Origin: Minisyncoccota bacterium
GTDB lineage: Bacteria > Patescibacteriota > Minisyncoccia > Phycocordibacterales > GWA1-40-21
NCBI GenBank assembly: GCA_041659365.1
Contig: JBAZYH010000013.1
Span: 1 to 30,745, forward strand
Direction of reading: 5' to 3'
DNA: 30,745 nucleotides
Shown: piece by piece, positions 5,032 to 22,124 of the stretch
Layout of the letters: each line of letters begins with the position of its first letter
Position numbering within the stretch: position 1 is the first letter of the stretch
Program-made: the position numbers and the translations under genes
The notes under the pieces: generated by a model
Seen by the model: only the letters and a program-made list of their open reading frames with translations
What the model was told of the DNA's origin: nothing
The model's database searches: none

Positions 5032-5106
5032 TCCGGAGTAGCTCAGCGGTAGAGCGGCGAGCTGTTAACTCGTTGGTCGTAGGTTCGATCCCTACCTCCG
5101 GAGCCA
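5032..5106 (+). tRNA. tRNA-Asn (anticodon GTT), CCA encoded
   Basis: Cloverleaf read by hand: acceptor TCCGGAG/CTCCGGA; D-stem GCTC/GAGC; anticodon stem CGAG/CTCG with loop CTGTTAA (GTT); T-arm GTAGG-TTCGATC-CCTAC; discriminator G then CCA. Confidence 0.9.
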
Positions 5107-6567
5107 GGTTGGTTGATATGCCAAATCTAATATACTGTTGTATGGAGAACGTAAGGAAAATTCTATGTTTTTTCCGTTTACAACACAGTTCTGAAGTAGG
5201 TAATTTAGAATTGCTCTTTTTTCAAGCACTTCAGAACTTTCAAATAGTTTAAGTGCATTTTTTGCTAGATTTAATACTGTAGAAACAGTGATATAGTAAT
5301 TTTCATCTGCTTTAGTATGATCTTCAAGTTGAATACTTAGATCATATTGTTTTTCTTTCAATTCTTTCAGAATCTTGTCATAGTTAGACTTAGTAATACT
5401 CTCATCAATAAATAGGTTTAAAATTCTATCTAATTTTATTTGTATAGAATCATACTCTTTTTTAATAGCATCTATCGAATTTTTATTATATAAAGTTTTT
5501 GCAACATTTGTTTTTTTAAGACCTTCAATAATCTTATCAATTTTCTCTTGAGGAATACTATTAAATGCCTCTAGGACCTCGTATATTGGCTTTAGTAGGT
5601 CTTTTTCTGGAACATATACCTTTGTATCACAAATGGCCTTTTTAGCGTTTGTACAAGCATAATAAACGTGACCTTTATGAGTTTCTGGACTCATAGAACA
5701 ACCGCATTTAGCACATCTTGCTAGTCCCCTAAAAATATATGGTTTAGAGGCATACTGGAACTTCTTTTTACCCCAGCTCTTCCTAATTTGTTGACACCTA
5801 TCAAATAACTCTTTGGTTATTAAAGGCTCATATTTATGATTCCAAGAAATATTTTTAGTTCTTGAATAAGATACACCATAATAAAAAGTATCATTAAGTA
5901 TTTTATCTATCATACTAAGTGATAATTTTTTATCATTTTTACTTCTTAAACCAAGCTTGGTTATTTCTTTCATTAAGGTAATAGTTGAATGATTACCAGT
6001 CGAATATAACTCAAACATTTTCTTAATATAATGTGATGTATCCGGATCCAAAACTACATCTATCTTTTTGCCATTTGTATTATATAAACTTTTATAACCG
6101 ATTGGGGGTTTGCCTGTACATTCCCCATTTTTACGCATTTGTTCCTGCTTTCTTTTAACATTATCACTCAGTTGAAGTACGTAACTTTTTGCAAACATTA
6201 CAGCCATATCCCAACGTAAAATATCAGAGCTATTTGACTCTTTATGAAGTACAAGATTTTCTCGATAGAAATGTATCTCGATCTTACCAGCTTTTCTTAG
6301 TAAATCTAGTTGGACCGACTCCTTGAAACTTCTTTGAAGACGATCTACTGTATCAACAACTAGAGCTATGATTTCTTTTGAATCTTGGATGCTCTTAATA
6401 ACTTCCTGAAACTTTTCTCGATCACCTTTAGTAGAAGATTCCTCTATTTCAACTGTTTTCCAAATAGTAAGTCCTTTAAATTTCACATAATCAGATACAC
6501 GAACAACTTGAGCTTCGTTTGAATCTTGTTTTTTGTCTGAAACTCTCGCTAGAATTATTGCTTTCAT
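5092..6567 (-). CDS. Large serine recombinase (resolvase/invertase N-domain + recombinase domain + zinc ribbon + coiled coil); putative island integrase
   Basis: MKAIILARVSDKKQ (catalytic Ser motif), CAKCGCSM...C zinc ribbon, C-terminal coiled-coil. Last 5 codons (QPTWLRR*) overlap the tRNA-Asn 3' end 5092-5106. The ORF-track start at 6642 is an upstream extension; Met at 6567 precedes the resolvase motif. Confidence 0.85.
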   Translation of the reverse strand: MKAIILARVSDKKQDSNEAQVVRVSDYVKFKGLTIWKTVEIEESSTKGDREKFQEVIKSIQDSKEIIALVVDTVDRLQRSFKESVQLDLLRKAGKIEIHFYRENLVLHKESNSSDILRWDMAVMFAKSYVLQLSDNVKRKQEQMRKNGECTGKPPIGYKSLYNTNGKKIDVVLDPDTSHYIKKMFELYSTGNHSTITLMKEITKLGLRSKNDKKLSLSMIDKILNDTFYYGVSYSRTKNISWNHKYEPLITKELFDRCQQIRKSWGKKKFQYASKPYIFRGLARCAKCGCSMSPETHKGHVYYACTNAKKAICDTKVYVPEKDLLKPIYEVLEAFNSIPQEKIDKIIEGLKKTNVAKTLYNKNSIDAIKKEYDSIQIKLDRILNLFIDESITKSNYDKILKELKEKQYDLSIQLEDHTKADENYYITVSTVLNLAKNALKLFESSEVLEKRAILNYLLQNCVVNGKNIEFSLRSPYNSILDLAYQPTWLRR

Positions 6568-6571
6568 AAAA

Positions 6572-8110
6572 TTATCTTTTTTGGTAAAATTCCGAGTTAT
6601 TAGTTTCAAGTTTTGAGATAAAATCCTCAATAGAAAAAGCAAATATAATCAATTTATCTTTATGTTCTATAAATTGAATCCACTTAATTGTATCTTCATG
6701 AATTTTTGGTGCAATAAAAAATGAAATACTCTCATTATTTTTAATCTTTTTATCTGCTAAATGCCTACTTATTGGTGCCATTTCTCTCGATACCTGTGCT
6801 GTCCCATTTAATAATGTTACTTCTAATAAACTACAACGTGTTGCTTCATAACATTCAATATCAGCATTGTTTCCAGGTGCGTGCGAAGAAGGAAGTCCTT
6901 CATCATCAGAAATGTAATTAGGAACTATCTTAATAGAAGGATATTTATTTAATACCGCCAAAGAGGTTAAAAATTCTAAACGTAATGGACTTTGTATATA
7001 TTTAAGAATCTCGTCTTTCGAAGAATTGTTTGTTTTTGTCAGATTAAGCATTTCTTCCTTAATTTTATTCCAGCTATAATATTCGGACCATTTTGAAAGT
7101 AATTTATTTTCTTCTTCAATATTAATTTTCTTAGCAAGTCCTAGCGATAAAAGATTTTGATCTATTTGTGATATATAATTAAAATAGTCTTTTTCGTTAG
7201 TGTATTTATTATACTTGTAATATTTATCAATTACGTAATCAATTTTTTGTAGTTCTTTTTTGTTTATATCAATAAATTGACCATAACCTCTAATTGTTAT
7301 TAGACCAGTAAGTCTCATTTTACGGATAAATTCATCTGGTAACTCTTGCATTATTGTTTCATTTTTTTGAGAGTTGTGACGACCACCAATAAGTTCATCA
7401 CAAACTTCAAGAATTACCTCCCAACTTGGTTGATATTTATGTTTATTTCTTATTTCTTTTATTTTTTTATATAAAGAGTCTACATCATCATCTCTCCAAC
7501 AAAGAATAAGTGGAAGTTCTAATTTTGATATTCCGGTATCATTGTATTCTGGGTCATTATCCAACCTTTTTATTACAGATAATAATAAAATTAGAGGCAC
7601 GTTCTCATTTAAAACCCTTCTAAATGGGTTATTTGATTGGTACTTCACAAAAGCATTTAAAAAGGCCTGTTGTTCAAATTCCGGATGTTCATTATCAGCA
7701 AATTTTAACCCAATTTCAGAAAATTCAATTGGCTCATCCATTTGGTAAAACACGAAACCAAGTTCTTTAGAAATTTTATAATGAGTATCAAACCTTGATG
7801 CCCACCCCCTATTAAAGCCGGCTTCCTTATGATCCTGTGGATTGTTAGACAAAACATCATTTACTTCCTCACTAGTAAGTTCTTCTTCGTTGACCCACTT
7901 GTTTTTAATAGAAGCGCTTACTTTCATTGGACGATATAACCCAAATTTAATTAAATCACCCTCAATACATTCAGCTAATTCGTTTGTTAAAATTTCCTTA
8001 TTATATTTTTTTAAAATATTTAAAAATCCTTTTATCCTCTCGGGATTTCTTACTGTTGTCGTAAATAACAAGGGTTTATATTGAGATTTTCTTTTGTTGG
8101 TTTTTGTCAT
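6572..8110 (-). CDS. Type IIS restriction endonuclease, AlwI family (N.BstNBI/PleI/MlyI-like)
   Basis: 512 aa. The N-terminal TTTVRNPERIKGFL motif resembles the conserved SPRSPEKI N-terminal motif of AlwI-family enzymes. Operon position next to two DNA MTases. Confidence 0.65.
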   Translation of the reverse strand: MTKTNKRKSQYKPLLFTTTVRNPERIKGFLNILKKYNKEILTNELAECIEGDLIKFGLYRPMKVSASIKNKWVNEEELTSEEVNDVLSNNPQDHKEAGFNRGWASRFDTHYKISKELGFVFYQMDEPIEFSEIGLKFADNEHPEFEQQAFLNAFVKYQSNNPFRRVLNENVPLILLLSVIKRLDNDPEYNDTGISKLELPLILCWRDDDVDSLYKKIKEIRNKHKYQPSWEVILEVCDELIGGRHNSQKNETIMQELPDEFIRKMRLTGLITIRGYGQFIDINKKELQKIDYVIDKYYKYNKYTNEKDYFNYISQIDQNLLSLGLAKKINIEEENKLLSKWSEYYSWNKIKEEMLNLTKTNNSSKDEILKYIQSPLRLEFLTSLAVLNKYPSIKIVPNYISDDEGLPSSHAPGNNADIECYEATRCSLLEVTLLNGTAQVSREMAPISRHLADKKIKNNESISFFIAPKIHEDTIKWIQFIEHKDKLIIFAFSIEDFISKLETNNSEFYQKR

Positions 8111-8124
8111 AAATAAAATTTATA

Positions 8125-21484: not shown

Positions 21485-22033
21485 GTGAATACAGAAAATC
21501 AAGTTCATAAAGTAATGAGGGTGCTTGGTCTAGGTTGTGAAGAAGAGATACGAACTGTTCTCAATATTCCCAAACCCGTGATATCAGGAAAAGTCTCTCT
21601 GGCAGAAAGGTTACAAAAAGCCGAAACTGTGAATGAGTGCTTGGAGCTTTGCCAAGAAAGAGGGCGTCATACTGATGGGTTTTGTAGCAAAGCAATAGAA
21701 AAAGCTTTACTACTCGCTTCAACGCCTGAAGAATGCAGGAGTGTAGAAATAATAATTTCTCTATACGGATATCATTCTGATAGACATCCTTATGAAATAA
21801 AAATGGAGGTATTACTTAAACCCCAACTTGAAGTTGCATCAACCGTAACTGAATATTTGGAAGTTTGTCACTTTGCTCCTCGTGGTAGCAAGACTGAGAA
21901 AGAAGCAATGCAACAAGCTTTAAATTTAGCCAAAAATATAAAAGACTTTAAAGATGTGTTCGGTAAAACCGCACCGGGTTCTGAAATACATCACATCTGC
22001 ATTCGCAGAATTTTGGAACTTCTCTCTGTTTAG
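21485..22033 (+). CDS. Hypothetical protein with internal about 35-aa Cys/Glu-rich repeats
   Basis: 182 aa; GTG start 9 nt after an AAGGAG Shine-Dalgarno. Repeated E.LE.C....G...EKA...AL.LA pattern. Own promoter and terminator. Confidence 0.45.
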   Translation: MNTENQVHKVMRVLGLGCEEEIRTVLNIPKPVISGKVSLAERLQKAETVNECLELCQERGRHTDGFCSKAIEKALLLASTPEECRSVEIIISLYGYHSDRHPYEIKMEVLLKPQLEVASTVTEYLEVCHFAPRGSKTEKEAMQQALNLAKNIKDFKDVFGKTAPGSEIHHICIRRILELLSV

Positions 22034-22054
22034 CCGACATCGACACGAACTAAA

Positions 22055-22095
22055 ACCCGCCACATGGTACTAACCATTGGCGGGTTTATTTTTTA
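22055..22095 (+). terminator. Rho-independent terminator
   Basis: Stem ACCCGCC/GGCGGGT with nested ATGG/CCAT, followed by TTTATTTTTTAT. Confidence 0.7.
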
Positions 22096-22110
22096 TATAA
22101 AACAACTTCT

Positions 22111-22124
22111 CTACCTCCGGAGCA
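22111..22124 (+). repeat. Second partial direct repeat of tRNA-Asn 3' end (CTACCTCCGGAGCA)
   Basis: 13/14 identical to tRNA 5092-5105. Confidence 0.7.

Follow-up and report, generated by a model that had tools for sequence, protein, structure and literature searches.

The contig JBAZYH010000013.1 raises the question of how a single tRNA-Asn gene came to be followed by a long run of inserted genes, and which enzyme put them there. The contig, here called the window, is 30,745 nt long and comes from a metagenome-assembled genome (MAG) whose host is labelled Candidatus Paceibacterota. Its sequence had led to the proposal, in an earlier note, that elements accumulated in tandem at one attachment site at the tRNA end, serviced by a large serine recombinase (LSR). 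The idea of tandem accretion proved largely right, but two insertion points were found instead of a single array at the tRNA: the end of the tRNA, which holds a 16.0-kb element (E1), and the end of a structured tRNA-like motif (S), which holds 8.9 kb of further DNA. A composite island with two docks, built through site-specific recombination by a tRNA-targeting LSR family, is considered the probable explanation of the locus.

The left 5 kb of the window are ordinary chromosome, with Dus, Def, Fmt, a hibernation factor and the tRNA-Asn(GTT) gene (5032-5106, + strand, Rfam 69.8 bits). The LSR gene (5092-6564, − strand, 490 aa from the ATG at 6564) converges with the tRNA and ends inside its 3' end, as had been noticed before, with an overlap of four codons plus the stop codon (5092-5094). 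The Pfam domains of the product are Resolvase (PF00239, 1.7e-14), Recombinase (PF07508, 3.1e-13) and Zn_ribbon_recom (PF13408, 2.6e-10), and the N-terminal ARVSDKKQ motif is kept across 26 LSR homologues. The protein is 100% identical to the NCBI MAG protein P0001. The last 7 nt of the tRNA, GGAGCCA (5100-5106), constitute the recombination core of attL.

The borders of E1 were read from relatives in which the site is empty. Metagenome contigs were searched with the last 26 nt of the window tRNA-Asn, giving 83 contigs (contigs and loci used for comparison are numbered with the prefix L). Directly after the tRNA, L093 and L107 continue with CAAAAATCATTAGACCCTTTTTAGAGGGTCTTTTTGATTTTTAGGCTCC..., which is the window sequence from 21097 on. 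By blastn, L107 is collinear with the window over 4180-5106 and then over 21092-21391, both alignments sharing GGAGCCA, a heptamer that occurs in the window only at 5100-5106 and 21092-21098. From this continuity across 5106 and 21092 it follows that E1 is 5107-21098 (one core copy counted), missing from the collinear L107 and L093 and lying between the tRNA core and the native tRNA-Asn terminator T1 (21099-21140, +), which is directly 3' of the tRNA in both relatives. The integration of an LSR element at the tRNA-Asn 3' end, part of the original proposal, is borne out by this empty site.

At the far border, the attR of E1 (21052-21098, +) consists of a P arm, CCAATCTAAAGTTCTAAACATATCCAACAGTG (21052-21091), plus the core GGAGCCA; it matches exact P-arm patterns as well as a profile built from other genomes (nhmmer, E = 7e-10). 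The T-loop-like GTTCTAAAC in this arm lies about 5 bp farther from the core than GTTCGATCC in the tRNA. The predicted attP of E1, TCCAACAGTGGGAGCCAGGTTGGTTGATATG, contains ...CAACAGTGGGAGCCAGGTTGGTTG..., while the predicted empty attB is CCTACCTCCGGAGCCAAAAATCATTAGACCC. The tail of the LSR depends on the integration state, with 490 aa in the integrated form and 512 aa in the reconstructed excised circle, where the frame reads into the P arm. A three-domain recombinase, hybrid attL and attR sites with a short common core, an unoccupied attB in relatives and a predicted attP half-site longer than attB are the properties of an LSR element. A far end of E1 at about 14.03 kb, at a conserved CTTTACTTTACTTTACA motif, was also considered and discarded: L025 and L002 continue past the motif, no + strand GGAGC is found within 5104-18091, and the empty site gives 21098.

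The same arrangement is found throughout the LSR family. A protein search with the LSR (cut-off E < 1e-10) yielded 1533 homologues, many of them 65-76% identical and in Patescibacteria MAGs; a scan limited to one genome per GTDB species gave 79 loci (Patescibacteria, Chlamydiae, Bacteroidota and others). ARAGORN called a convergent gene with its 3' end abutting or overlapping the LSR stop in 47 of the 79 loci, namely tRNA-Asn, -Gln, -Ser, -His, -Asp, -Glu, -Arg, -Tyr or tmRNA. A tRNA or tmRNA 3' half missed by the program was identified by eye in the same position in a further 18, bringing the total at tRNA or tmRNA 3' ends to about 65 of 79. Among the 79 loci there are eight in which the tRNA-Asn at the LSR end has a group-I-intron-like insert (GATATAGTCC...; L007, L009, L022, L036, L037, L045, L052, L054), an interruption that accounts for the lack of an ARAGORN call there; several of the 18 loci identified by eye are of this kind. 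Group I introns in Patescibacteria tRNA-Asn genes have been described (PMC13011429) and match those loci. In viral contigs, no close relatives of the LSR were found, and look-ups of its exact protein sequence gave no record.

At 13 of the 79 loci, a conserved P-arm junction stands in place of the tRNA to the left of the core, with the consensus (CCAGTnnAG or CAAACA)RGTTCTNAAC-N13-14-core. The T-loop-like GTTCKAA is 22-23 nt from the core in P arms, compared with 17 nt for GTTCGA in tRNAs, and in 20 P arms the predicted distance between GTTCTNAAC and the core is 22-23 nt. An outward shift of the outer motif by about 5 bp separates attP from attB half-sites in LSR systems, and therefore the P-arm junctions are interpreted as attP or P-O-P' junctions. 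The position of the crossover is given by L025, which is perfectly repeated in tandem with a period of 6,441 nt: its internal junction and its tRNA junction are identical from the final CAGC of the tRNA (4 nt) onward, indicating a crossover at the extreme tRNA 3' terminus. The two LSR copies of L025 differ in length (494 and 519 aa; 3560-5119 vs 10001-11485). A first P-arm profile, trained on 16 P arms, was run on the LSR loci and gave, on the far side of the LSR, 51 matches on the tRNA-sense strand against 3 on the opposite strand. A second profile, trained on other genomes only, without window sequences, found 21052-21100 (E = 7e-10) and 26223-26273 (E = 1.1e-9) in the window, both on the + strand, which establishes P-arm homology across genomes at the sequence level. 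The attB, attP, attL and attR forms of the family are all readable, and elements whose far end is visible measure 5-10.4 kb. For L018, an attR with a CGGAGC core at about 8.6 kb was superseded by a P-arm match at 6270-6309.

The window also contains longer copies of the tRNA end. The tRNA-end 16-mer CCCTACCTCCGGAGCC is found again with 1 mismatch at 21384-21399 and with 2 mismatches at 22109-22124, when 0.02 matches are expected by chance and 3 matches were reached in 0 of 100 shuffles. The exact stretches in common with the tRNA end are of 16 nt (21383-21398) and 13 nt (22112-22124). The copies reported earlier are thus real, but their proposed role as LSR att sites is not sustained, since the attR of E1 is the P arm plus GGAGCCA at 21052-21098 and the direct repeat is of 7 nt only. 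In textbook terms, a classical tyrosine-integrase tRNA island is recognised by direct repeats of 13-16 nt from the tRNA 3' end (Islander concept, PMC4383910); on that reading, these copies would be att scars and the LSR an unrelated passenger or invertase. This origin is very improbable here: no tyrosine recombinase domain was detected in 32 scanned open reading frames (ORFs), the recombinase present being a serine recombinase; the empty site puts the border of E1 at 21098, not at 21398, so that the far end is not the 16-nt fragment; an LSR at tRNA ends is a property of the whole family, and other elements of the family do not have the long repeats. Long tRNA-end repeats were also tried as a family-wide far border and rejected, being present only in the window and L041 among the 79 loci. 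The layout of L041 is that of the window, with an LSR element, a P arm (core masked by N) and then two tRNA-end copies; in its 4388-6500 region, an inverted T-arm piece lies between both copies and another P arm follows.

The 16-nt copy turned out to be the 3' end of S and is therefore not a scar left by E1. In the window, S (21141-21398, +, covariance model 94 bits) is a fusion of two units of different types, with inverted tRNA pieces in 21141-21311 and the direct tRNA-end copy at 21383-21398. In general, the last ~24 nt of the tRNA appear twice in S, as the reverse complement in its 5' strand and as a direct copy at its 3' end, the layout being GCTCCGGAG, a hairpin, CGTGTAGGGATCGAA, P3, TACTG, P4 with a GTA loop and GATtCCCTACCTCCGGAGC. 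The unit is about 135 nt long, lies 0-50 nt 3' of the tRNA gene and is found in this position in many Patescibacteria. It follows the tRNA terminator in L150, L148, L160, L114, L129 and others, is also present in L026, L059, L007 and L022, and occurs in genomes without an LSR element. RNAalifold on seven S sequences gave 37 pairs with compensatory changes in 26 of them, a value reached in 0 of 500 shuffles, while slid controls had only 2-6 such pairs; one example presented a folding z-score of −7. With the covariance model, further S units were found after tRNA-Val, -Leu (twice), -Ala (twice), -Ser and -Asn, each with the matching tRNA sequence. No Rfam family except tRNA was found in 20900-22350, in L041 or in four S-containing loci, and counts of G-U vs A-C did not discriminate the strand of S. 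A hammerhead or other small ribozyme core was considered and rejected, as the junction order does not fit. S is a structured motif adjoining tRNA genes that is both new and well supported.

Beyond S, the inserted DNA does not end at 22124, where the feature had first been closed, but extends to 30316. In L150, the order is tRNA, terminator, S, a AGTAAAAATCACC-hairpin, one small gene, a P arm TTCCAGTTTAAAGTTCTGAAC... and GAAGCC, after which AGTTGTAAACCAAAGTAAAG... (a promoter) and the next gene form the same native flank as in the window. That flank (30317-30581, +) has a promoter and a gene for a 69-aa membrane protein (30372-30581), as given by a 21/24 nt match and the alignments with L150 and L093. 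In relatives, both adjoin tRNA-Asn/S, and a 75% identical homologue of the protein is encoded directly after tRNA-Asn/S in L130. The window matches L150 at 22107-22173 (90%), 26176-26256 (85%) and 30319-30379 (87%). Relative to L150 and the other relatives, 21399-30316 is thus extra DNA in the window.

This extra DNA is divided into six modules without LSR, each closed by an arm plus core, with a P arm in five of them and a tRNA-like arm in the first; as in islands of the staphylococcal cassette chromosome (SCC) type, tandem recombinase-less elements are separated by repeated att sequences. Module c1 (21399-22124, +), an insertion relative to L150, has a TTGACA promoter, a 182-aa ORF (21485-22033) and a terminator, and its right end is the tRNA-like CTCTACCTCC followed by GGAGC. 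Module c2 (22125-25000, +) encodes an MVP-shoulder protein (22320-24869) and ends with a D1-type P arm plus GAGC (24973-25000), D1-type arms being a 45-80-nt repeat family. Module c3 (25001-26266, +) has ORFs of 71 and 203 aa and a canonical P arm plus GGAGC at its right end (26223-26266, nhmmer E = 1.1e-9). Module c4 (26267-27273, +) has a TTGACA promoter, a 266-aa ORF and a D1-type P arm (27246-27273), and c5 (27274-28033) a NYN-domain protein on the − strand and a D1-type P arm plus GAGCC (28006-28033). The last module, c6 (28034-30316), comprises a 160-aa ORF, an ECF sigma factor and ORFs of 126, 80 and 90 aa, on the − strand, and is closed by a degenerate D1-type P arm (30289-30316). GC content varies between modules from 0.28 to 0.48. 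The 849-aa MVP-shoulder protein (PF11978, 2e-31) lies in a cassette with a GC of 0.48, compared with about 0.29 for the genome.

Several predictions made from the letters alone could be followed here. The MVP and unknown-gene cassettes do belong to the array, and further elements without a recombinase did accumulate in tandem. The promoter-bearing cassettes are c1 and c4, which start GGAGC then AAATTTGACAAA with the TTGACA promoter pointing into the cassette; in L006, too, a P arm is followed by this start. The motif GGAGCAAATTTGACAAA recurs as announced, exactly twice (21394-21410 and 26262-26278), with the positions first given for it off by 2 nt and 6 nt, whereas the sequence left of 26262, taken for a degenerate tRNA remnant, is actually an attP-type P arm (E = 1e-9, other-genome model). 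Alternative cassette contents, looked for in related genomes, were found in L150, with other cargo between the same ends: the left end of c2 is common to the L150 cassette and the P arm of c3 is 85% identical to the L150 P arm, a pattern of shared ends and different cargo that is plain from the alignments. Outside this locus, D1-type arms abut the LSR 3' end in L002 and L093, and L030 has a 1.17-kb GC-rich insert without LSR between tRNA-Ser and the LSR element (11446-12646), with CGCA cores and a P arm.

The array could instead have grown at a single dock. All cassettes would have entered at the tRNA, a mini-element made of T1 and S would later have entered the tRNA T-arm, displacing the 16-nt end together with the array, and E1 would have arrived last; the S 3' end would then be a displaced tRNA fragment and no docking site. 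The S end is indeed an exact 16-nt copy of the tRNA end from the T-loop/T-stem, as left by islands that cross over in the T-loop, S-like units occur in tandem in L160 and in two types (S-a and S-b), which suggests duplication or mobility, and S is truncated at its 3' end in L093 and L130. However, a displaced fragment agrees poorly with the strong covariation of S (compensatory changes in 26 of 37 pairs) and with its constant position behind several different tRNAs, whose sequence it matches each time. Moreover, domain scans of the window ORFs found no integrase that crosses over in the T-arm, and S likewise follows tRNA-Ser and an LSR element in L026, where the order is the same as in the window. 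This history is accordingly regarded as unlikely, and the two-dock reading is retained. S itself would then presumably be the docking site. A more far-reaching proposal, which we put forward tentatively and with some doubt, is that S is an undescribed tRNA-linked element of Patescibacteria and possibly an attI-like second dock, and that together with the LSR family it makes up an integron-like system of cassette capture, with a serine recombinase as its enzyme and tRNA mimicry as its anchor.

As the contig comes from a MAG, it was also considered that the array might be an artefact of assembly or binning, or that the P-arm-like sequences might be ordinary repeats between genes with no role in recombination. 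GC content is about 0.25-0.31 up to 17.9 kb and 0.36-0.48 at 18-27.2 kb, and then goes back down; this jump from 0.28 to 0.48, the D1 repeats missed by the canonical model and a terminal inverted repeat of 127 nt, a common assembler k-mer size, could all be taken that way. But four junction regions are reproduced in independent metagenome contigs (tRNA to T1, S, S to c2, and P arm to native flank), and in 79 other genomes P arms show a strong preference for one strand and for one side of the LSR gene, so that such an origin is scarcely credible. The terminal inverted repeat is perfect (window 1-127 and 30619-30745) and may be an assembler k-mer artefact or a genuine inverted repeat around the region. 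L001, a 2.5-kb contig from Logan SRR18595301, is 100% identical to window ~2550-5060 and stops within the tRNA-Asn D-arm, indicating that the same organism was present in that sequencing run.

The genes of E1 follow a backbone that was recovered by ORF clustering across the family: far-end gene, small ORF, c1 family (o375 in the window), small helix-turn-helix (HTH) gene (o60), variable cargo, LSR and tRNA. The candidate directionality factor o60 (10775-10957, −) is a core gene encoding an HTH_17/excisionase-like protein (Pfam 1.3e-12, PHROG excisionase). By tblastn, 43 of the 79 loci have it alongside the LSR, and its ORF cluster comprises 41 loci including the window. We know of no common fold for LSR directionality factors, and o60 probably is the one of E1. 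The other core gene, o375 (11685-12812, −), encodes a Rep_trans-fold rolling-circle initiator or relaxase-like protein; o375 itself has no Pfam match, while among 25 relatives 4 match PF05144 (G2P/CRI replication protein) and 1 matches PF02486 (Rep_trans). A protein of the Rep_trans family is a feature of integrative mobilizable elements (IMEs), and with small HTH and Rep_trans-type genes in its backbone the family resembles small integrative, replicative or mobilizable elements. The region 12809-14015 (−) has o59, a small ORF conserved in 22 loci, and the far-end gene o297, which takes the position of the c3/c10 gene families in other loci. A conserved promoter-like motif, TACTTTACTTTACTTTACA...TATCAA, lies 5' of the far-end gene (14016-14052). 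Its CTTTACTTTACTTTACA part is directly 5' of that gene in more than 15 loci (window 14016-14034), and a second window copy, at 17895-17916, sits before SIR2, exactly on the GC step.

The cargo of E1 is mainly defence, with a restriction-modification system and SIR2-HerA. Cargo region 1 (6572-10773, −) encodes an AlwI-like type II restriction enzyme, a 246-aa unknown protein and two Dam-class methyltransferases. Cargo region 2 (14059-21021) includes xseA, xseB, four small − strand ORFs (incl. DUF6804), a LOOT RNA, a 181-nt tandem repeat, SIR2-HerA and a 102-aa ORF; L012, L003 and L013, among others, likewise have a second region of cargo, located after the far-end gene and before the P arm. The exonuclease VII genes xseA and xseB (14059-15622) lie inside E1 and are read from the outward side of the conserved promoter motif. 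The LOOT RNA (RF03000, 82 bits) is located at 17320-17444 (−). The 181-nt tandem duplication (17504-17878, 87% identical) is dense in short direct repeats such as ATACTAGCAAATACTAGCAAATACT and AAATGTCAGTAAATGTCAGT; this iteron-like stretch could be a candidate origin for the Rep_trans-like protein.

In the favoured model, E1 would have crossed over within GGAGCCA, that is, the last acceptor-stem bases, the discriminator and the encoded CCA, at the tRNA-Asn (dock 1). A crossover within this terminal heptamer leaves the tRNA intact, and the tRNA provides the final two codons and the stop of the LSR gene. The Xis-like HTH protein o60 would control the direction of recombination, and with it and a Rep_trans-fold initiator in E1 the excised circle could be replicated or mobilised by that initiator. 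At dock 2, six recombinase-less modules would have been stacked at the S 3' end, each made up, in this order, of a core, a P' end carrying a promoter or terminator, the gene(s), an arm and a core. A newcomer would integrate at the dock-proximal junction (B-O-P'), producing P(new)-O-P'(old) junctions and placing the newest module nearest the dock, while the cassettes would depend on an LSR acting in trans. The form of the modules is the pattern expected if newcomers enter at the dock-proximal junction with an LSR in trans, and this LSR or a relative presumably moved them.

Some observations weigh against this model. The four D1-type arms are missed by the canonical P-arm model, and their assignment is based on similarity to two junctions elsewhere; c1 closes with a tRNA-like arm instead of a P arm; and the tRNA mimic at the S end is without the GGTTCGA motif at attB spacing, which argues against the S end as a dock and makes it at most a putative attB. 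The xseA and xseB genes, the second copy of the promoter motif and the GC step at 17.9 kb indicate that E1 itself may be a fusion of two elements. The contigs used for comparison are relatives at 81-96% identity and not the same strain.

In recombinase chemistry and predicted att geometry the system matches LSR integrases, and it behaves like SCC islands and like the streptococcal accretion of IMEs and decayed elements. LSR integrative elements and phages such as phiC31, Bxb1 and A118 have the same three-domain recombinase and a short crossover core, the same attP outer motif ~5 bp farther out than in attB, and an expected separate small directionality factor. Here, however, the target is the extreme 3' end of a tRNA or tmRNA, and the recombinase ORF runs across the core, with the C-terminal tail changing from 490 aa integrated to 512 aa excised. 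The tRNA/tmRNA-terminus target, the ORF-across-core arrangement and a family of cassettes with LSR-type ends set the system apart from known LSR elements.

The analogy with SCC islands, drawn in the earlier note, holds for behaviour and fails for target and att anatomy. Like SCCmec/SCC (Ccr, rlmH 3' end), the locus combines a serine recombinase, one conserved chromosomal dock with tandem stacking that includes recombinase-less elements, and accessory and defence cargo. Unlike them, it is based on a tRNA plus tRNA mimic instead of rlmH and on one LSR instead of ccrAB; the window has no rlmH and its target is the tRNA-Asn 3' end, so that it does not belong to the elements integrated by Ccr at the rlmH 3' end. 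SCC junctions have repeats of about 15-18 nt, while the junctions here have a conserved P arm and a 4-7-nt core, and the hosts are Patescibacteria, Chlamydiae and Bacteroidota. As in integrons, mostly single-gene recombinase-less cassettes are ordered at a fixed dock, each with a conserved recombination site. But IntI (no Phage_integrase domain in the 32 scanned ORFs), attC hairpins and a common Pc promoter are all missing from the window; promoters are instead carried by some of the cassettes, the half-sites are LSR-type and the junctions are LSR P arms, which sets it apart from integrons. We know of no conjugative helper in the hosts of this LSR family. The Rep_trans (MOBT-like) IMEs of streptococci (PMC5357655, PMC5704250) are likewise small (3-16 kb), with an outward-facing integrase at one end, a Rep_trans-fold protein and accretion with decayed neighbours at one site. 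In streptococci, serine-integrase IMEs target and disrupt protein-coding genes, and those IMEs that enter tRNA genes do so with tyrosine integrases (PMC5357655).

According to Mageeney et al. 2020 (PMC7192596), no serine integrase was known to have a tRNA gene as its target, and the 14 computational cases out of 297 that they found still needed proof. In the literature linking serine recombinases or integrases to tRNA targets, Patescibacteria, the candidate phyla radiation, Saccharibacteria or Chlamydiae, within the journals covered, no description of the present family was found. Against the view of serine integrases as non-tRNA-targeting, a whole LSR family with tRNA-end targeting is found here, and because its core is at the tRNA terminus, the tRNA is never disrupted. 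The data suggest that this widespread family builds defence-gene islands at tRNA genes. Its att sites are short and readable from sequence, which makes them candidate genome-engineering tools for Patescibacteria and Chlamydiae, bacteria that are difficult to manipulate genetically. Recombinase-less cassettes with conserved ends and swappable cargo also offer a way in which very small genomes may gain defence and accessory genes, such as SIR2-HerA in E1 and MVP, NYN, ECF sigma factor and unknown genes in the cassettes.

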